64,000 nt of DNA from Bacteroidota bacterium (GTDB taxonomy: Bacteria > Bacteroidota > Bacteroidia > Bacteroidales > Lentimicrobiaceae). Below the pieces are notes generated by a model that was given only the letters and a program-made list of their open reading frames with translations, had not been told where the DNA came from and searched no databases. Position numbers and translations under genes: made by a program. Below, piece by piece: positions 1,038 to 64,000 of this stretch (position 1 is the stretch's first letter; the number at the start of each line of letters is the position of its first letter). The stretch covers positions 3,971 to 67,970 of the forward strand of contig WSXX01000023.1 in assembly GCA_009773515.1 (NCBI GenBank), read 5' to 3'.

Positions 1038-3692
1038 ATGCGAATTCTCTTCGTTGCCCTATTGCTCACAATATCCGGCCTTCATGCCAGAAGTCAGGTT
1101 TACAAAAACCCGGAAGCTCCCATTGATTCAAGGGTAAACGATTTATTGAGCCGAATGACTATTGAAGAAAAATTCTGGCAACTCTTTATGCTTGTGGAAG
1201 ACTGGAGTCTTGATAAAAGCCGGTATTCAGAAGGAGCTTTTGGATTTGAAGGTGGTGTTGCTGCAGATAATGCAAACACAGCCGGCCAGATGATTCAGAT
1301 TGTAAGCGGCGAAAAAGCTGCTGAAATGGCCAAATTGATCAATCGGGCTCAAAAACATTTTATTGAAAACACCCGTTTGGGCATCCCGATTTTGCCGTTT
1401 GATGAAGCTTTACATGGACTTGTAAGGCCGGGAGCCACTGCATTTCCGCAATCCATTGGCCTGGCCGCAACTTTCGATACAGCGCTGATGCATAGCGTTG
1501 CCGCAGCCATTGCCATCGAAACAAAAAGTCGCGGAATAAGGCAGATTCTTTCGCCTGTAATAAATATTGCCGGCGATGTGCGCTGGGGCCGCGTAGAAGA
1601 AACCTATGGCGAAGATCCGTTTCTTGCTGCTGAAATGGGTGTTGCATTTATTTCGGAATTTGAAAAACGAAACATCATAGCCACCCCGAAACATTTTGTT
1701 TCAAACTATGGTTCGGGCGGGCGCGACAGCTATCCCATACATTACAACGAACGCTACCTCAGAGAAATTGAGCTACCTCCTTTTGAAGCTGCATTCAAAC
1801 GCGGTGGTGCCCGTTCGGTGATGACATCCTACAACTCACTGGATGGGAGCCCATGCACTGCCAACGACTGGCTGCTCAACCAATTGCTGAAAAATGAATG
1901 GGGTTTTACCGGATTTGTGATTTCAGATGCCGGAGCAACCGGTGGCGCCAATGTTTTGCATTTTACGGCTAAGGACTATCAGGAGTCAACCGAAAAATCA
2001 ATAAACAATGGGTTGGATGTGATATTTCAGACGGCTTTTGAACATTATCCACTTTTTATCGATGCTTTCAGTTCGGGAAAAATCCCAGCCGCTGTTATTG
2101 ACAGCGCTGTGGCCAGGGTTTTACGGGCAAAGTTTCAATTGGGACTTTTGGAAAATCCGTATGTTGATCCTGCTGAAGCTGAAAAAACCAATGGCTCTGC
2201 AAAACACCGTGAAATTGCAATTGAGGCAGCCCGAAAATCGATTGTTCTGCTGAAAAATCATAATAATATCCTGCCATTGAATTCAAATCTGAAATCCATT
2301 GCAGTTATTGGTCCGGATGCAATGGAAGCCCGTTTAGGCGGATATAGTGGTCCGGGGAACAATAAAATCTCAATTCTGGATGGCATTAAAACCCTGATTG
2401 GCGACAAAACTCAAATCCACTATGCCAGAGGATGTGAGCGGGAAGTTGTTCATTATCAAACTATTCCTTCAGCATATTTGACTACCGAAGAAAACGGGAA
2501 ACCGTTCTCAGGCTTGACTGGCTCCTATTTCAGCAACATCAACCTTTCCGGAAAGCCAGTCTTTGTCAGAACCGATAAGCAGATTAATTTTCAGTGGACC
2601 TTATTTTCTCCTGACTTTGAAAAGCTGAACTATGATTTCTATGGCGTTCGCTGGGAAGGGAAACTAAAAGCACCTGCATCGGGAAGTTTTAACTTAGGAA
2701 TTGAAGGAAATGATGGTTATAAACTTTATATCGACGGTGACTTACTGATCGACAACCAATTATTTACAGGGCACAATCTTAAAACAACAACTTTCAGTTT
2801 CACCGAAGGTCAGGAATACAACATCCGCATCGAATATGCCGAACCTACCGGCAATGCGTGGTTCAGGCTGGTTTGGGATTTCGGCATACCAGATCATTAC
2901 GAAAGTCAATTTAACGAAGCTATTGACCTTGCTTCTGAAAGTGATCTGATTGTAATGGTTGCCGGCATTAACGAAGGCGAATTTCAGGACAGGGCGCTGC
3001 TGAACCTTCCGGGAAATCAGGAAGAAATGATTCAAAAACTGTCTGAAACCGGAAAACCTTTAGTGATAGTTGTGGTTGGAGGAAGCGCTATTACCATGAA
3101 TAACTGGCTGGATAAAGTGGATGGGATAATATACGCCTGGTATCCGGGAGAAGCAGGTGGGCAGGCTGTAGCAGAAGTTTTGACCGGCAAATATAATCCG
3201 GCTGGACGGCTACCGATAACTTTTCCAATGCATGAAGGTCAACTACCATTGGTTTACAACAGCAAACCCACCGGCCGTGGCGATGATTACATCAACTTAA
3301 GCGGACAGCCACTTTTCCCTTTCGGATATGGGCTGAGTTACACAAGCTTTGCGTACCAAAATCTGACAATTTCAAAAGCAAATGAACCCGATTTGTTTAC
3401 GCTTAGTTTCAGCCTGACCAATTCCGGAAAAACAAAAGGCGAAGAGGTTGTACAGCTTTATATCCGTGATCTTTTTGCGTCGGTTGCCCGTCCAAAAACG
3501 GAACTAAAAGCATTTAAGCGCATCGGGTTAAAGCCGGGTGAAACAAAGCAGGTTGAATTTCAGATTACTCCTGAAATGTTACAGATGCTTGATATCAACC
3601 TGAAAAAAGTGGTGGAACCGGGCGATTTCAGGATTATGATCGGGGCTTCATCAAAAGACATAAGGCTGAATGGAACATTGAGGGTTGAGTGA
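1038..3692 (+). CDS. Secreted GH3 beta-glucosidase/xylosidase with PA14 insertion and C-terminal Fn3-like domain
   Basis: Signal peptide; RWGRVEETYGED, KHF and nucleophile region VISDAG; PA14-like GLTGSYFSN...INFQW; GEEVVQLY. Confidence 0.9.
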   Translation: MRILFVALLLTISGLHARSQVYKNPEAPIDSRVNDLLSRMTIEEKFWQLFMLVEDWSLDKSRYSEGAFGFEGGVAADNANTAGQMIQIVSGEKAAEMAKLINRAQKHFIENTRLGIPILPFDEALHGLVRPGATAFPQSIGLAATFDTALMHSVAAAIAIETKSRGIRQILSPVINIAGDVRWGRVEETYGEDPFLAAEMGVAFISEFEKRNIIATPKHFVSNYGSGGRDSYPIHYNERYLREIELPPFEAAFKRGGARSVMTSYNSLDGSPCTANDWLLNQLLKNEWGFTGFVISDAGATGGANVLHFTAKDYQESTEKSINNGLDVIFQTAFEHYPLFIDAFSSGKIPAAVIDSAVARVLRAKFQLGLLENPYVDPAEAEKTNGSAKHREIAIEAARKSIVLLKNHNNILPLNSNLKSIAVIGPDAMEARLGGYSGPGNNKISILDGIKTLIGDKTQIHYARGCEREVVHYQTIPSAYLTTEENGKPFSGLTGSYFSNINLSGKPVFVRTDKQINFQWTLFSPDFEKLNYDFYGVRWEGKLKAPASGSFNLGIEGNDGYKLYIDGDLLIDNQLFTGHNLKTTTFSFTEGQEYNIRIEYAEPTGNAWFRLVWDFGIPDHYESQFNEAIDLASESDLIVMVAGINEGEFQDRALLNLPGNQEEMIQKLSETGKPLVIVVVGGSAITMNNWLDKVDGIIYAWYPGEAGGQAVAEVLTGKYNPAGRLPITFPMHEGQLPLVYNSKPTGRGDDYINLSGQPLFPFGYGLSYTSFAYQNLTISKANEPDLFTLSFSLTNSGKTKGEEVVQLYIRDLFASVARPKTELKAFKRIGLKPGETKQVEFQITPEMLQMLDINLKKVVEPGDFRIMIGASSKDIRLNGTLRVE

Positions 3693-3758
3693 GGGGAAAA
3701 AGGCAAATAATTTTGTCGTATAGTTAAGGTCCCGGTTGGGAATACTAAAATTAAAAAA

Positions 3759-4075
3759 GTCCTTCGTTCCGATAGCTATCGGAACCGCTACCAATGACAG
3801 ATTGTTCGTTTTATCTCCTTAATCAGGATTACATTGATTTAAAAAATCAATTGTTTAGTCCTGCGACTCCGCTCAGGATGACATTGTAAATGATTGATTG
3901 TGAATGTATTAAAAATAAACAACGCTAACCTAACACGAATGTCACACTGAGCGAAGTCGAAGTGTTTTGACGCTTGATTTAACTGCCATCTCCGCATTAA
4001 GCTCAATTTTTTTTTGAGTGCAAACTCAGGATGACTGTCAGTCTGAGCGGTTCCGATAGCTATCGGAACGAAGAC
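3759..4075. repeat. Cluster of five REP-like units (BIME-like); two carry the palindrome GTTCCGATAGCTATCGGAAC
   Basis: Units matching TGTCANNCTGAGCGRAGTCGAAG(G/T/A) at 3759-3799(-), 3858-3883(-), 3940-3964(+), 4024-4035(partial -), 4036-4075(+); palindromes at 3766-3785 and 4050-4069. Confidence 0.85.
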
Positions 4076-4150
4076 AAATTTTCTTAACTAAACGGCATTA
4101 ATATTACCCTTAAATAATTTCGTGTAATTTTTGCCCGATTGCAACTAAAC

Positions 4151-5833
4151 TCATTCTCCTTTCCAATCACCGTTTTCTTTAATCAGTTCAACCAATGCTT
4201 CAACTGCTTCTGATTCCGGCACACCCCGTTTCACGGGCACTTTACCTTTGTAAAGATTTACCTTACCATTTCCTGCACCTACATAACCATAATCGGCGTC
4301 AGCCATTTCGCCTGGCCCATTTACAATACAACCCATTACACCAATTTTCAGACCTTTAAGATGACCCGTGCGGGCTTTCACTTGCTGAAGTGTTTCCTGA
4401 ATGTTGAAAAGCGTGCGTCCGCAGGATGGACAGGCAATAAATTCGGTCTTCGAAATTCTCATGCGTGTTGCCTGAAGCAATCCAAAACCAATCCGGATAG
4501 CATCTGATAATGGAACTTCAGTGGCATCCATACAAATTCCGCTTCCAATTCCGTCAATCAGCAGATTGCCAGGATTCAGGCTGTTTTCAAGCAACATTTC
4601 TTGCGTAGAATTACAAACAACCGGCGATTTGAGAATCAAAGGGTTTTTCAGCTCATTCTGAAATAATGCTTTGTCCAGCATTCTGAGTTTATCTGCGCCC
4701 GCTTCAGCCAGAATGACCATTGCCGGATTCGTGCTGAGTTGAGAAAGAAGACCATGAAGTTTATCGGCAATCATTGCTTCGTCAACATTAAGCATCTCAG
4801 AAATTAGAGGACTAACATTATTCTCTTCATCAGCAATAAAATATTGTCCGTTTTGACGAATCAACACGGCAACAGGATTTTTACCTCCGATAATCCCGCA
4901 GGCTGAGGTTTCTCTGCAGTAATCGGTTTCGCGGCTTACCAGAAGATCAGGGCGAATCATCCGAACTATTTCACCCTTTTCGTTTAACTGATGAAATCTA
5001 TCCGCAATAGCATTGGCAACCGGCAGTTCAAATTCAGGATCTTCGGTAAGCGAAACACGGATGGTATCTCCGATTCCGCGCGCAAGCAAAGCGCCAATTC
5101 CGGCAACTGACTTCAAACGACCATCTTCTCCATCGCCGGCTTCGGTAACGCCAAGGTGCAGAGGATAATTCAAACCCTCAGCCATAAGTTTTTCTGCAAG
5201 CATAAGATATGCCGAAACCATCACCCTGACATTGCTCGACTTCATCGACAAAACCAGGTTATGAAAACCTTGTTTGTGACAAATGCGGGTAAACTCCAGC
5301 GCTGACTGCACCATTCCTTCGGGAGTATCGCCATAGCGATCTACAATCCGCTGACTCAGCGAACCGTGATTTACGCCTATGCGGATTGCGGTTCCATATT
5401 CCTTACAAATGGAGAGAAGCGGAGCCAGGCTTTTCGAAATTTTCTCAAGCTCAGCTTCATATTCTGAATCTGAATAATTTAGTTTGGCTGAGTTTGGCCT
5501 GTCAACATAATTGCCGGGATTAATTCTGACTTTCTCCACAATTCCGGCAGCTATTTCAGCAGCTTCAGGGCTGTAATGGATATCTGCAATCAGTGGGACA
5601 TTATATTTAAGGGCTTTAAGCTGACCTTTAATCACCTGAAGATGTGCAGCTTCTTTTGGCCCCTGAGCGGTAATGCGAACCATTGCACTTCCGGCTTCTA
5701 TCATTCGTATTGCCTGATCAACCGTAGCCCTGGTATCCATGGTGAGGGTATTGGTCATGGATTGCAGGCAAATCGGATTGTTTCCTCCGATTTTAAGCAT
5801 ACCGATTTTTACTTCCAGAGAGTGATAGCGCAT
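4151..5833 (-). CDS. ispG: 4-hydroxy-3-methylbut-2-enyl diphosphate synthase, long Bacteroidota form
   Basis: QSMTNT, ADIHY, RINPGN, RIGVNHGSLS, HLGVTEAG, CPSCGRT, MGCIVNGPGE; start moved to the ATG of MRYHS (5833). Confidence 0.95.
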   Translation of the reverse strand: MRYHSLEVKIGMLKIGGNNPICLQSMTNTLTMDTRATVDQAIRMIEAGSAMVRITAQGPKEAAHLQVIKGQLKALKYNVPLIADIHYSPEAAEIAAGIVEKVRINPGNYVDRPNSAKLNYSDSEYEAELEKISKSLAPLLSICKEYGTAIRIGVNHGSLSQRIVDRYGDTPEGMVQSALEFTRICHKQGFHNLVLSMKSSNVRVMVSAYLMLAEKLMAEGLNYPLHLGVTEAGDGEDGRLKSVAGIGALLARGIGDTIRVSLTEDPEFELPVANAIADRFHQLNEKGEIVRMIRPDLLVSRETDYCRETSACGIIGGKNPVAVLIRQNGQYFIADEENNVSPLISEMLNVDEAMIADKLHGLLSQLSTNPAMVILAEAGADKLRMLDKALFQNELKNPLILKSPVVCNSTQEMLLENSLNPGNLLIDGIGSGICMDATEVPLSDAIRIGFGLLQATRMRISKTEFIACPSCGRTLFNIQETLQQVKARTGHLKGLKIGVMGCIVNGPGEMADADYGYVGAGNGKVNLYKGKVPVKRGVPESEAVEALVELIKENGDWKGE

Positions 5834-5951
5834 GTGATCGGGTTTTTCAGCTGAATTATAGCACAAAAGTAAGGTGTTTATCACTCTGACAATGACAGAT
5901 AATTCCTTTTATCGTGCATTTAGAATTACTTGGTTTAGAATTGATCGTTTT

Positions 5952-5989
5952 TTCCTTCGTTCCGATGGCCTATCGGAACGAAGTGTTTT
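5952..5989. repeat. Collapsed REP pair: two REP tails joined by a palindrome variant
   Basis: TCCTTCG-TTCCGATGGCCTATCGGAA-CGAAGTGTTTT; 12-bp stem with 5-nt loop; both tails match REP ends elsewhere in the window. Confidence 0.65.
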
Positions 5990-6155
5990 TGATTCAATTT
6001 CCCTCTGTCAACTCATATTTCCTGAATAATTTCCTGGTCAATTCAATTTTTGTTGCAGCAGGAAATAAAGAACATTTATTTTGTACATTAGCCAAATATA
6101 ACAGGTCTATCACTTATTTTGAAATTCATCTGCCTTATCCCCAAAAACCAGCACA

Positions 6156-9100
6156 ATGTCAGTAAAAAAAAACCGCACAGGCCAGATACTTATAATTCTT
6201 ACGGCCCTGATCTTTTCATGTTCAACACCCGGTTCCCTGAAATTAGAATCCACCAATTTTGAAGGCCAGATTGACCCGTTTCAAAATCTGGAATTCACTT
6301 TTAATCAGGACCTTGCCCCGGATTCGCTGATTGAAAAATGGGATACAACGGCTTACATAGCTTTTGAGCCATCAATAAACGGGCGGTATAAATGGGTCGC
6401 TCCCGCAAAACTGGTCTTTATTCCATCGGTTCCTTTTGCACCAAATACCGATTATCGGGCTGTTATAAATAAGGAAATCAGCCGGTTTGCGACAAAACCA
6501 CTGAAAGCAGAACAAGAAGAAATACTATTTCACACGCCCTACCTTACCATTGAGCGCACAAACGCTTACTGGGGTCTGAGCGAAGGAGATAAAAATCTGG
6601 TTCAACTCAGGATGAATGTAGTTTTTAACTACCCGGTTAACCGCGATGATATACGCAAATACCTGAACATCAAAATAAAAGATCAGACAAAAGGATTCGA
6701 TATAATTGAGGCAAGCAATTCCAATACCATTGAAATTGCAATTCCAACCACAAACAAAGATGATATAAATGGCGATCTGAATCTGTTGTTACTCAAAGGC
6801 ATGAAATGTATAGGATCAAGCAGGGCACTGCCCGAAGATCTGAATTTTAATGTTCCGGTTCCTCCCCGCGACCGCCTTGAAATCAGCGATGTAGCTACTG
6901 AGTTTCAGGATGGCGAAGGAATTATCTTTGTTTTTACCTCACAGCCTGTTGTAGAAAAAGGCCTGAAGAACCTCATAAAAATAGAACCGGAAGTCGATTT
7001 CACGGTTGTTACAATCGGAAACGGGTTTAAAGTTACAGGAGGTTTCGCCGACGGACAATCATACGACCTGAGCATCTCAGGAAAACTGAAAGGTATTTTT
7101 GGTCCTTCACTTGACAGCGACTTCAAACAAGCTGTGACCTTCGGAACCCTTCAGCCATACCTTGCCTTCAGCGATCAGAACAGCCTGTACCTTACTTCAC
7201 AAGGGTCACGAAATTTAGGGTTAAGTCTGATAAATATCCCAAAACTAAGAATTACAGTTTTCAAGGTATTCGAAAACAATATTCAGCACTACATGCGCAG
7301 CGGAAAAAGCTGGGACTGGCATTATGAAAATGATGAATACTACGATTCGTATGGATATAATCTTGATGAGAATTTCGGGAAGGTAATAAGTACCCGTGAA
7401 ATCGATACCCGTTCGCTACCCAAAAAAGGAAACCTTCGCCTGCTCAACCTTAAACCCGAAGAACTTGAGTTATCATCCGACATGAAAGGCATTTATCTTA
7501 TTAAAGCTGAATCAACTGAAAAACAATGGCTTAGTGACGTACAAATGGTTTCGGTTTCAGATATCGGGCTTATTGTGAAGCAAGGTGCAGACGAGGTATT
7601 GGTTGCAGCAAGATCCATTGCCACAGCTCAGCCCATTGAAGGTGTAAAAATCAGATTCTTCAGCCGCAGCAATCAGATGATTCACGAAGCAAGTACAGGA
7701 AGCGATGGAAATCTGATTTTCAAAGACATTAAAAAAACAGCGCCGGGTTTCGACATTTCAATGATTTCAGCAAGGAAAAACGAGGATTTCAATATACTGC
7801 TTTACGACAGATCCTCCATCGAAACCTCACGCTTTGATGTTGGCGGAAAACGCACTTCGGGACAAATTTATGATGTGTTTATCTATGGCGACAGAAACCT
7901 TTACCGCCCCGGTGATTCGGTGCATTGTAATGCCATCGTAAGAAGTTTTGCATGGGAAACAATTCGTGATATTCCGGTAAAATTCAGGGTAATCAGTCCC
8001 GATGGGAAAGATTTGCTGATCAGAAGAGCCCAACTTAATTCAAATGGTGCGGCTCAGCTGAATTTTGCACTTTCTGCATCCGCACTCACCGGCTCATATA
8101 TGGTTGAGGTACTTTCAGGCAACGATGTAATGCTGGGAAATTATCGCATCTCTGTAGAGGAATTTATGCCGGACCGCATTAAAGTGGAAGCAATTCCCGG
8201 CAAAACAACTTACAAGCCGGGTGAGATTCTTTCAGTGAATATCACTGCCAGCAACCTTTTCGGACCACCGGCCACCAACCGGAAAGTAGAAAACGAATTA
8301 AGAATCAGCCGTAAAGCATTCTATCCGAAAAAGTTCAGCGAATTCAACTTCTTTGTTAAAACGACATCTGAAATTTATTTCGAAAATCAGATAAGTGAAG
8401 GCATAACCGATGCCAATGGCAAGTTTCAGCAGGAGTTTGCACTTCCTGATTTTGAGCAGATCGGCCTATTGGATGCAAAAGTATTTACCACTGTTTTTGA
8501 CGAAACCGGCCGTGCTGTGAACCGTTTTTCGCAGGTTGAAGTTGTTACTCAGGATGTTATGCTGGGCATCAAACACTTGCCGGGATGGGTAAGTACCCGC
8601 AAACCTTTGTCGGTGAGCCTGATTGCCATCAACCGACAGGAAACTCCGGTAAAGGCAAAAGCAAGAATAGAGGTGGTTCATCTGAAATGGGAAACGGTGC
8701 TGGAACGCAATTATGGACGTACCAGTTATCGCTCACAAAAGAAAGAAAGTGTTGTAATGTCACGGGAAGTATCAATAGCCCAATCTGGTTATAGTTTTCA
8801 GTTCAGCCCCCCGACTTCAGGTGAATATGAAGTGAGAATAAGCAACGAAAAAAGTTCAAATTATGTTGTTTCCGGATTTTACGCTTATGGCTGGAGCGAT
8901 TTCGGGTCGTCAGCCTTTTTTGTAAACCGCGAAGGTGAAATTGGAATAGAAACAGATAAAACGCAATATAAACCGGGTGAACATGCAAATATTCTGTTTA
9001 AAACTCCCTTTGAAGGCGAATTGCTCGTTACTGTTGAACAGGACAGGGTACTTGAATATTACAGTTTGAAAGCTGATGCTTCAGGAGCAAGTATGAAACT

Positions 9101-21164: not shown

Positions 21165-21411
21165 TGGCAAGTATTTGAACCTTCAGTTTATATCAAAAAA
21201 AAAGCCCCCTTCTGGGAGCTTTAAGCGGACCGGACGGTCTCGTCAATCAAATAATTGACGAGAGAACCCGTCTCGTCACCAGTGACGAGATGACAGGCAC
21301 GTATTCTAACCTTCAGTTTAGATCAAAAAAAAGCCCCCTTCTGGGAGCTATAGCGGACCGGACGGTCTCGTCAATAAATAATTAACGAGATGACAGGCAC
21401 GTATTCTAACC
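21165..21411 (-). repeat. Tandem tRNA-Asp-derived pseudo-copies with hairpin insertions, each followed by a terminator-like hairpin
   Basis: Copies at 21353-21411 and 21225-21311 share GGTTAGAATACGTGCCTGTCA and CCGTCCGGTCCGC with the tRNA; remnant near 21165-21188. Confidence 0.88.
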
Positions 21412-21675
21412 TAAATCCCCTTTACTTTGAGAAAGGTATGAACTTGCCAGAATTTCAATTGAACGACGATTCAGTTTCTTGAGCCGTTTCTCTTCAATTA
21501 ATGCCTCTCGTTTGGTTTCAAACTCTTTAAGATAAACCAACTTCCAGGGTCCTTTACCAGCCGTATAATGGCTCAACTCATTATTGTGTTCCCACAAACG
21601 ATGTACGGGGTCATTTGAAAAACCCTTATAGTAAACGTCAGAAATTGCAGAATAGATGATGTAAGTATAATACAT
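21406..21675 (-). CDS. Small stand-alone GIY-YIG nuclease
   Basis: YTYIIYS..YYKGFSNDPVHRLWEHN..YT..GPWKLVYLKEF..ALIEEKRLK; ATG at 21675. Confidence 0.85.
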   Translation of the reverse strand: MYYTYIIYSAISDVYYKGFSNDPVHRLWEHNNELSHYTAGKGPWKLVYLKEFETKREALIEEKRLKKLNRRSIEILASSYLSQSKGDLG

Positions 21676-21678
21676 AAT

Positions 21679-21707
21679 AAAAAAACCCCACATAACTGTG
21701 AGGCTTT
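21679..21707 (-). terminator. Terminator-like hairpin between tRNA-Asp and the GIY-YIG ATG
   Basis: AAAGCCTCACAGTTATGTGGGGTTTTTTT on the minus strand. Confidence 0.6.
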
Positions 21708-21710
21708 AAG

Positions 21711-21784
21711 CGGACCGGACGGGACTCGAACCCGCGACCACATGCGTGACAGGCACGTATTCTAACCAACTGAACTACCGATCC
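21711..21784 (-). tRNA. tRNA-Asp(GTC), CCA not encoded
   Basis: GGATCGG/CCGGTCC acceptor stem, D-loop GGTTAGA, anticodon loop CTGTCAC, T-loop TTCGAGT. Confidence 0.95.
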
Positions 21785-34162: not shown

Positions 34163-34209
34163 TCTATATGGTCACAAATTATAAATCAATGTCGTTTAGT
34201 TAAAAAAAA

Positions 34210-34258
34210 GTCTTCGACTCCGCTCAGACTGACAGTCATCCTGAGCGGAGTCGAAGGA
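34210..34258. repeat. Inverted REP doublet between convergent genes
   Basis: GTCTTCGACTCCGCTCAGACTGACA+GTCATCCTGAGCGGAGTCGAAGGA. Confidence 0.85.
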
Positions 34259-34295
34259 TACTTTTTTATTTTATATTTTAATACGGGAAAATTTT

Positions 34296-63834: not shown

Positions 63835-64000
63835 CACTTCGACTCCGCTCAGTGTGACATTCGTGTAGTGGCAACATTGATTCTTTGTAATACGCATGTT
63901 ATCATCCATTTACAATGTCATCCTGAGCGGAGTCGAAGGACAACACATTCAATTTTTCACTACCATGTAATCCTGAAAAAGGAGATAATAAGGACATTCT
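63835..64000. repeat. Head-to-head REP pair with both linkers; inverted homologue of about 3800-3968
   Basis: REP at 63835-63859(-) and 63916-63941(+); the reverse complement aligns with the 3.8-kb copy through the linkers (GGATGACATTGTAAATG, ACACGAATGTCACAC, TTATCTCCTT..TCAGGATTACA). Confidence 0.85.

Follow-up and report, generated by a model that had tools for sequence, protein, structure and literature searches.

An 18-nt sequence, TTCCGATAGCTATCGGAA (P1), has replaced three bases in the core of a short repeat at two places within a 64,000-nt stretch of a Lentimicrobiaceae (Bacteroidota) genome, hereafter the window. In this exchange ACT (AGT on the other strand) is lost and 18 bases enter, and the adjoining G and C complete a perfect 20-bp palindrome, GTTCCGATAGCTATCGGAAC, found at 3766-3785 and 4050-4069 (0 expected in shuffles). 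Both copies reside in a miniature inverted-repeat transposable element (MITE), and hairpins of the same type accompany one clade of small GIY-YIG nuclease genes elsewhere in the phylum. On balance, we lean towards P1 being a Bacteroidota-wide mini-hairpin that belongs to this nuclease clade and has spread in the present genome mainly as a passenger of the MITE.

Exchange of a Repeat Core for a Palindrome

The source assembly (G000; 67 contigs, 5.03 Mb, 41% G+C) contains 230 copies of the native core TTCG-ACT-CCGCT, which divide by their tail into 214 with CAG and 16 with ACC. Its P1-like copies number 34, and 32 of them occupy the repeat core, where they replace ACT. The exact core TTCG/CCGCT surrounds 23 of the 34, a further five have one diverged flank, and four show the solo form TTCG-P1-CGAA. 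The two copies outside the core are at C38:21247 and C65:13014. All four subfamilies of the repeat hold P1, with native and P1-bearing cores in the proportions 23/5, 62/2, 131/4, and 16/12. An earlier, sequence-only reading of the window had proposed that a palindrome invades repetitive extragenic palindromic (REP) units at a fixed site; the census bears this out, with the correction that the exchange removes three bases (ACT) and brings in 18. In G000 the P1 breakpoint is fixed.

P1 is not the only palindrome at this position. A second perfect palindrome, P2 (TCCCGCACGTGCGGGA), substitutes CGACTCCG at the same core, between CTT and CTCAG, and was counted 18-22 times in G000. Its breakpoints within the core differ from those of P1. 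Palindromes of the CCTGCC..GGCAGG type are likewise found at the repeat core. Since several palindromes use one core, each with breakpoints of its own, the core is a general exchange point with palindrome-specific breakpoints. An origin of P1 as the footprint of an insertion sequence was considered and rejected: isolated half-sites (TTCCGATAG) look random or like decayed P1, and no pair of them bounds a gene.

The Carrier Element

The units previously taken for REPs are internal modules of a MITE. Its inverted ends, CAATGTCGTTTAGTTAAG, give 58 and 57 end matches in G000, which combine into 31 pairs of less than 700 bp. The basic form (13 elements of 117-120 bp) contains one doublet with native cores. 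One P1-bearing element of 134 bp corresponds to 119 - 3 + 18 bp, and one P2-bearing element of 127 bp to 119 - 8 + 16 bp, which gives clean size classes. The long forms, of 270-600 bp, contain additional nested modules. A repeat of ~260 bp (..aatcaatcaaatgctgatcaaagtaaaaatcaaccttagtaac..) is also nested in long forms, directly after CCGCTACCAATGACAGA (C44:95300-95600, C30:50800-51100, C3:207250-207550, and others). The element generates a target duplication of 10 bp, as seen at C5:71047 and C46:74292, where the target is present in single copy in the nearest relative, G013. None of the end pairs spaced 700 bp to 9 kb apart encloses a gene (one 1334-bp pair was left aside).

In the window, the composite MITE at 3710-4101 (forward strand) measures 386 bp, with inverted ends at 3713-3728 and 4083-4098 and four internal repeat modules. 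P1 is present in both outer modules. In the first copy (3766-3785), the 18 nt at 3767-3784 stand in place of ACT in TCCTTCG-ACT-CCGCTACCAATGACAG. The inner modules retain native cores, one on the forward strand at 3862-3885 (TGCGACTCCGCTCAGGATGAC) and one reversed at 3939-3966 (GTCACACTGAGCGAAGTCGAAGTG). The second copy (4050-4069) stands in place of AGT in CAGTCTGAGCGG-AGT-CGAAGACA, within a doublet-type module at 4024-4076. The reference for the uninvaded state is a short element with a native doublet at 34189-34270 (forward strand; GTCTTCG-ACT-CCGCTCAG...CTGAGCGG-AGT-CGAAGGA), in which the left inverted end (34189-34204) alone was detected. As first noticed from the letters of the window, the reverse complement of 4024-4075 equals this doublet, at 34210, except at the insert. 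Two further inverted modules with native cores are located at 63835-63940 on the forward strand.

The third palindrome of the window is a solo hairpin at 5952-5989, CCTTCG-TTCCGATGGCCTATCGGAA-CGAAG, a remnant of a composite of roughly 400 bp. When folded as single-stranded DNA, it forms a 12-bp stem (-13.3 kcal/mol). By the same method the native doublet at 34210 folds into a 16-bp hairpin (-21 kcal/mol), and the P1-bearing doublet module of the 4050 copy into a three-way junction. The sole match in an Rfam scan of 3500-6200 was a sub-threshold small RNA, and a literature search for the palindrome and repeat sequences found no paper containing them.

Comparison with the Nearest Relative

G013 shares ~91% identity with G000 in the window region and has both window palindromes at matching places. 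The orthologue of the element at 3710-4101 is the same element with both palindromes, which means that the window copies of P1 are old. Throughout the genome, the picture is different: 5 of the 34 P1 sites of G000 are common to both genomes. At 20 further P1 loci that were aligned to G013, the whole element is missing from the relative in 11 cases; in two of these 11 the empty site is clean and the target is duplicated over 10 bp (AAATATGAAC and AATCAGAAAT). The loci without the element, together with the clean empty sites, indicate that P1 travels within transposing MITEs. The earlier idea of a parasite of a parasite gains support in that the insert is nested in a repeat that is itself mobile. 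Fresh invasion by the palindrome, which had been envisaged as the main route, does not agree with these data, because most new P1 sites are insertions of a whole MITE.

Exchanges in situ also occur, and account for the remaining aligned loci. The orthologous MITE at C9:2563 carries P1 in G000 and P2 in G013, and the opposite direction is seen at C11:59.1k, where G013 has P1 and G000 has AGT; at this locus the adjacent linkers differ too. Targeted events and gene conversion among copies of the MITE would both account for such swaps.

The solo hairpins are explained by the same comparison. Those at C11:55026 and at 5959 in the window correspond to full composites, ~270 bp longer, in G013, and the proposal that the sequence at 5952-5989 arose by deletion between two cores is supported by these preserved orthologues. 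In the G013 orthologue of the window solo, which has the same flanks, the left core reads TTCG-TT-CCGCT and the right core contains a P2-like palindrome. The sequence TTCG-TT-CCGCT is the expected product of slippage between the CCG triplets on either side of P1.

Small GIY-YIG Genes and Their Hairpins

The small GIY-YIG proteins of these genomes were recognized by PF01541 matches in reading frames of 83-125 aa; the sequences comprise 79-109 aa and consist of the catalytic domain only. Their closest solved structures are the UPF0213 entries 1zg2 and 1ywl (E 4e-7 to 1e-12), and an NCBIfam search assigned them no family. Among 19 loci inspected in five relatives, 13 show a common arrangement, in which the gene follows a tRNA gene and is accompanied by copies of that tRNA whose loop segments are replaced by perfect palindromes. 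REPs flank the gene at three loci, so that hairpin-bearing tRNA copies or REPs are present on the flanks at 16 of the 19.

In a gene tree, which is small and was built from rows chosen from the loci at hand (a G009 pseudogene and extra tandem copies were left out), the genes separate into clades, each with its own hairpin. The tRNA-Asp clade (support 98/94), which includes a gene of the window at 21406, is associated with the hairpin TCTCGTCA..TGACGAGA, the Asn clade (97/97) with TCCCGAAGCTTCGGGA, the Pro clade (95/97) with CCCCGCCACCGGCGGGG, and the Arg clade (96/89) with CCTGCC..GGCAGG. A REP-flanked clade (89/94) is associated with REP units. The P1-type hairpin belongs to a further clade (89/85, inner node 95/88), whose seven intact genes group together regardless of the tRNA or the host. 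These genes adjoin tRNA-Met, Leu, Phe, and Asn, and come from this order as well as from Flavobacteriales.

At each of the eight P1-clade loci examined, a tRNA copy located no more than ~130 bp from the gene carries a hairpin of the P1 type, NYCCGAT-NGCN-ATCGGRN. The loci comprise G023, G009 (gene with a stop), G003 (four tandem units), G036, G058, L105, L116, and L136; the locus labels L207, L249, L250 (four tandem units), L251, and L252 are also given for this set, beside L105, L116, and L136. The suspected link between the palindrome and small GIY-YIG genes with hairpin-swapped tRNA copies is therefore real for this clade. At six of the eight loci the hairpin follows TTCR and takes the position of the final 3-4 bases of the T-loop, and the bases replaced in real tRNAs are AGT, ACT, AAT, or AATT (T-loop positions 58-60). 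At L105, P1 has replaced ACT between ggcggg and tgaaccc on either side of a GIY-YIG gene of ~95 aa; at L128 it has replaced AAT between gcggg and cgaaccc. L116 has P1 in the anticodon loop of a tRNA-Met copy next to the GIY-YIG gene, and at L136 the tRNA fragment with P1 is 127 bp away from the gene.

The tRNA-Met locus is available in both states, empty in G000 (C56) and filled with a cassette in G023, G036, and G009. In the filled genomes the native terminator stands after the P1-bearing copy, and this downstream terminator is the same as that of the empty allele. From the two alleles and the order of the terminator it follows that the cassette is an insertion behind the tRNA, with P1 in the T-loop as its downstream junction.

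Several small GIY-YIG loci have other arrangements. Tandem cassettes are found at G003:C12:41053-43835 (seven) and G003:C6:68825-70203 (four), the units of the latter array each ending in a tRNA-Met T-arm copy with TCCCGATAGCTATCGGGA. The genes at L213 (G044:C322) and L226 (G044:C400) lie within a short inverted repeat, taccccgtgagata / tatctcacggggta, and are apparently inserted in another open reading frame and not beside a tRNA.

The Local Nuclease

The window encodes one small single-domain GIY-YIG protein, at 21406-21693 on the reverse strand (PF01541, 2.0e-14), which the tree assigns to the tRNA-Asp clade. An intact tRNA-Asp(GTC) is located at 21710-21784 and two partial copies of it at 21225-21410, all on the reverse strand. 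Loop segments of the copies are replaced by TCTCGTCA..TGACGAGA hairpins at 21238-21263, 21271-21290, and 21366-21390, a design also present in G010, G011, and G023. The sequence-only reading had linked the T-loop insertion in this tRNA copy to the palindromes of the repeats; the copy at 21225-21311 has indeed lost GACTC (native 21723-21727), but to a 26-nt TCTCGTCA..TGACGAGA hairpin and not to P1. This hairpin has five copies in G000, all in or beside tRNA copies and none in REPs. The hairpin is also present in fragments beside tRNA-Gly(ccc) and tRNA-Arg(cct), at C38:59355, C58:30135, and C58:30222, where no GIY-YIG gene was detected.

These observations bear on the earlier proposal that the 21406 protein, or another local GIY-YIG enzyme, nicks GACTC in a hairpin context, with the palindrome then inserted or templated afresh, so that most copies would be independent. 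In its favor, the breakpoint is fixed in four subfamilies, the T-loop GAGTC is missing from the tRNA-Asp copy, and the other two small GIY-YIG genes of G000 (C66 and C15) are flanked by these repeats, as units of the TCGACTYCGCTC superfamily. However, the relatives of the 21406 gene in the tree are tRNA-Asp genes with a hairpin that never occurs in REPs, and other genomes have AGT, AAT, or AATT replaced and not GACTC. Whole-MITE insertion at most lineage-specific sites and the different breakpoints of P2 within the same core also speak against this proposal, which we regard as quite improbable. A gene of the P1 clade was not found in G000, where the best match is the 21406 gene itself, at 39% identity. 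The earlier reading is thus partly supported: it named the right class of enzyme and the wrong gene, and it erred on the signal and on the main route of spread.

The C66 locus has peculiarities of its own. Upstream of its REP-flanked GIY-YIG gene (C66:31200-31800) there is a weak P1-like hairpin, TTCGAT-ttcctat-ATCGAA, and downstream a repeat unit begins within its core (..taaa, then TCCGCTCAGTGTGAC), as if the gene sat inside the unit. The repeat units may be the cognate of another GIY-YIG clade, of the C66 type, in which case the hairpin of one nuclease would be nested in the repeat of another.

P1 Across Bacteroidota

When one mismatch was allowed, P1 was detected in 21 of 61 relatives, or 6 of 25 genera, and the count per genome varied between 0 and 32. 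Chance would give ~9 exact matches to the 18-mer in 596 Gb, against at least 120 contig stretches that contain one. Nearly all are from Bacteroidota (Flavobacterium, Gillisia, Saprospiraceae, Chitinophagaceae, Bacteroidales, Cytophagales, and Lentimicrobium), and one exact copy is on a viral contig. The sole occurrence outside the phylum, on a contig of a Pseudanabaena metagenome-assembled genome (L140), has flanks nearly identical to those of L112 (Flavobacterium aurantiibacter) and is probably a mis-binned contig.

The flanks of P1 are wholly different from genome to genome. Variation within P1 falls mostly in the central AGCT of the core CCGAT-AGCT-ATCGG, a pattern in keeping with a 4-nt loop on a 7-bp stem. 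On the left of P1, TTCR is enriched four-fold, yet is found at only 8.5% of the sites phylum-wide. The palindrome therefore lies mostly outside REPs and tRNA copies when the phylum is considered, which goes against the earlier expectation, while in G000 the expected location in the repeat core holds. A preference of P1 for hairpin tips was also considered and rejected as a weak effect: among 129 sites, flanking stems of at least 5 bp are found at 11% (3% of controls) and of at least 7 bp at 5.4% (0.3%), and the overall rank test is not significant. In a further metagenome-assembled genome of Bacteroidia (L134, position 652), P1 stands between ..gcaaccgcc and cgaaaggtgctaaatcctaccctgag.., surroundings that resemble a segment of a structured RNA, perhaps the stem of a cobalamin riboswitch.

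One alternative is that P1 is an autonomous, tiny mobile hairpin, comparable to the small dispersed repeats of cyanobacteria and moved in trans by a non-GIY-YIG enzyme such as one of the Y1/HUH type, with the nuclease cassettes as one more landing place. The 129 exact copies have very different flanks and are mostly far from GIY-YIG genes, P1-rich genomes lack a nuclease of the P1 clade, and G000 has seven Y1_Tnp genes. However, each Y1 gene has a REP family of its own, with neither P1 nor the TTCGACTCCGCT repeat on its flanks, and no insertion sequence was found with P1 half-sites as ends. The link to one nuclease clade at all eight loci, at one position in different tRNAs, would also be an odd coincidence. 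We judge this explanation unlikely, although less so than the action of a local nuclease.

A second alternative is that P1 is a motif selected by the host, as a protein-binding site, a terminator, or a structural element, its position in REPs merely reflecting the descent of one sub-variant. The stem is exactly conserved across the phylum, with variation centered on 4 nt, and some P1 copies cap terminator stems. Yet species of a single genus differ in copy number between 0 and 32, and only five of the 34 sites are shared with a relative of ~91% identity. P1 is also found inside dead tRNA copies and MITEs, and unrelated palindromes are swapped in at the same site. Selection by the host is, in our view, the least probable of the explanations considered, and only barely worth retaining.

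T-Loop Mimicry and the Proposed History

The repeat core, TTCGACTCC, resembles a T-loop, and P1 replaces the counterpart of positions 58-60. Given this resemblance and the varied bases replaced in real tRNAs, GACTC is not the target, and the former role of this pentamer as a recognition word has to be given up. Its presence in both repeat and tRNA reflects the T-loop consensus. The possibility that the repeat is a copy of the 3' end of a present tRNA was rejected, the best tRNA of G000 having 5-6 mismatches in 20.

In the history that we favor, the home of P1 would be the downstream end of the single-domain GIY-YIG cassettes (~95 aa) of one clade, arranged as a tRNA gene, directly followed by the GIY-YIG gene and then by a partial tRNA copy bearing the hairpin, mostly in place of ANT, the last three T-loop bases, in TTCR-ANT-CC. 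P1 would have entered the T-loop-like MITE core TTCG-ACT-CCGCT once or a few times. Its later multiplication could then be ascribed mainly to transposition of the MITE and to exchange between copies at the core that they have in common. Loss of the stretch between two cores with P1 would give the solo TTCG-P1-CGAA hairpins and slippage across the hairpin the sequence TTCG-TT-CCGCT, and other palindromes such as P2 would be able to occupy the same place. As the matching nuclease clade is not encoded in G000, the P1 copies of this genome are probably inert passengers.

Several points weigh against this history. A GIY-YIG gene is beside P1 at only 3 of the 129 phylum-wide sites; together with the small share of sites after TTCR, this means that most copies need another explanation or a long history. 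The P1-rich genomes G000 (32), G044 (29), G011 (25), and G013 (19) yielded no gene of the P1 clade, and G003, which encodes four of them, lacks exact P1 copies outside the cassettes. The count of P1 correlates with that of GIY-YIG genes (rho 0.49), but genome size tracks both (0.55 and 0.59), which makes the correlation uninformative. The rows of the tree were hand-picked, and two had been search seeds. No tRNA of G000 fits the repeat tail, and the T-loop mimicry therefore rests on ~12 bases. Finally, the in-situ swaps could be ordinary gene conversion among MITE copies and not targeted events. With the number of P1 copies uncoupled from the nuclease genes in both directions, the high copy number in G000 is best explained by hitch-hiking.

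How the hairpin is written into its targets can be proposed by analogy with the Ssn enzymes described below. The nuclease may bind its hairpin in single-stranded DNA and cut loop-like targets, repair from the cassette copy then writing the hairpin in; this route is conceivable, but we would call it doubtful. A broader proposal, which we hold with slightly more reserve still, is that the small GIY-YIG proteins of Bacteroidota constitute many nuclease-hairpin pairs, in which each nuclease clade recognizes a perfect-palindrome hairpin of its own and targets the loops of tRNA-like stem-loops; copying of the cassette into a target would write the hairpin there. P1 would then belong to one of these clades and would have escaped into a MITE, to persist and multiply there without the enzyme. 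If the pairing holds, the phylum would offer a natural collection of tiny nucleases with individual hairpins of ~18 nt. The record of hairpin landing in tRNA loops and repeat cores offers a handle on how very short palindromic repeats spread. It also shows that a short repeat can gain high copy number purely as a MITE passenger, which calls for caution when activity is deduced from copy number.

Comparison with Known Systems

Tiny repeats nested in other repeats have a reported precedent in the SDR1-8 repeats of Nostocaceae, which Elhai and colleagues are said to have described in 2008 as mobile-looking sequences of ~20-27 nt in near-exact copies. We know of no enzyme for them. P1 shares their size class, near-exact conservation, and nesting, but belongs to another phylum, has another sequence, and possesses a candidate partner gene as well as a home in a tRNA T-loop copy.

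In the REP/REPIN-RAYT systems and bacterial interspersed mosaic elements (BIMEs), short extragenic palindromes likewise form mosaic clusters and are associated with a small nuclease-type gene that has repeats of its own on its flanks. For P1 the relation is an analogy only. The TTCGACTCCGCT units lie in a MITE with inverted ends and target duplication, and the partner gene encodes a hydrolytic GIY-YIG nuclease, unable alone to cut and rejoin DNA. The GTAG/CGTC head is absent beside the hairpin, P1 being flanked by TTCG and CCGCT in G000 and by variable sequences elsewhere. Of the seven Y1_Tnp genes of G000, five to seven are real RAYTs with REPs of their own. An association of P1 with RAYT genes, for which the earlier reading had proposed a test beside that for GIY-YIG genes, was rejected, as none of the seven loci has P1 or TTCGACTCCGCT within 1.5 kb. 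Five of the genes are intact (C46:119369-119710, C57:9653-9997, C57:70929-71267, C51:32221-32559, and C49:22361-22705) and have arrays of their own distinct REP family on both sides, e.g., GCCCTGAAAGGGC, GGGCTAAAGCCC, and CCCCAGCGGGGCGCAGCG.

Mobile elements at a fixed place in a palindromic repeat are represented by IS1397, ISKpn1, and IS1111-type insertion sequences, which target REPs (Tobes and Pareja, 2006, as cited in PMC3116915). They too are parasites of a parasite, but full elements of at least 1 kb with transposases, whereas P1 is an 18-nt sequence that replaces 3 nt. A GIY-YIG gene among tRNA genes is known from the phage T4/T6 tRNA gene cluster, in which SegB is a free-standing homing endonuclease (PMC2330249). 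As with the tRNA-Met locus here, alleles with and without the gene exist. However, SegB includes a part that binds DNA, and no tRNA copies with swapped-in hairpins accompany it, while the present proteins consist of the catalytic domain only.

The closest known system is that of the Ssn proteins (cd10448), single-domain GIY-YIG enzymes that bind hairpin repeats flanking their genes (NTS/dRS3, SRM) and cut adjacent single-stranded DNA (Chenal et al., 2025; PMC11893778). The GIY-YIG-only architecture of ~90-110 aa, the short hairpin repeats on the flanks of the gene, the dispersal of these repeats as tens to hundreds of genomic copies, and the pairing of different nuclease clades with different hairpins are all shared. 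A gene flanked by hairpin repeats that recur elsewhere was found at 16 of the 19 loci, at C66 and C15 of G000, and at the P1-clade loci. P2 (TCCCGCACGTGCGGGA) moreover resembles the dRS3/NTS core, TTCCCGCG..CGCGGGAA. The differences are that the nearest solved structures of the present proteins are those of UPF0213, and that PMC11893778 makes no mention of tRNA genes, loop-swapped tRNA copies, Bacteroidota, or MITE-nested hairpins. The SRM motif (HGTCWYN(0-2)YYVSBRHN(0-5)WNVSBRGN(0-2)RNCYNB) fails in the contexts of P1, P2, REP, and the tRNA-Asp hairpin, while the NTS control passes, and its 11 matches in G000 are no more than in a shuffle. Because the motif is unmatched and the nearest structures are UPF0213, membership in the Ssn family is not established. 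Should the pairing of nuclease and hairpin hold in Bacteroidota, it would extend these recently described enzymes, which are of interest as tools for single-stranded DNA.

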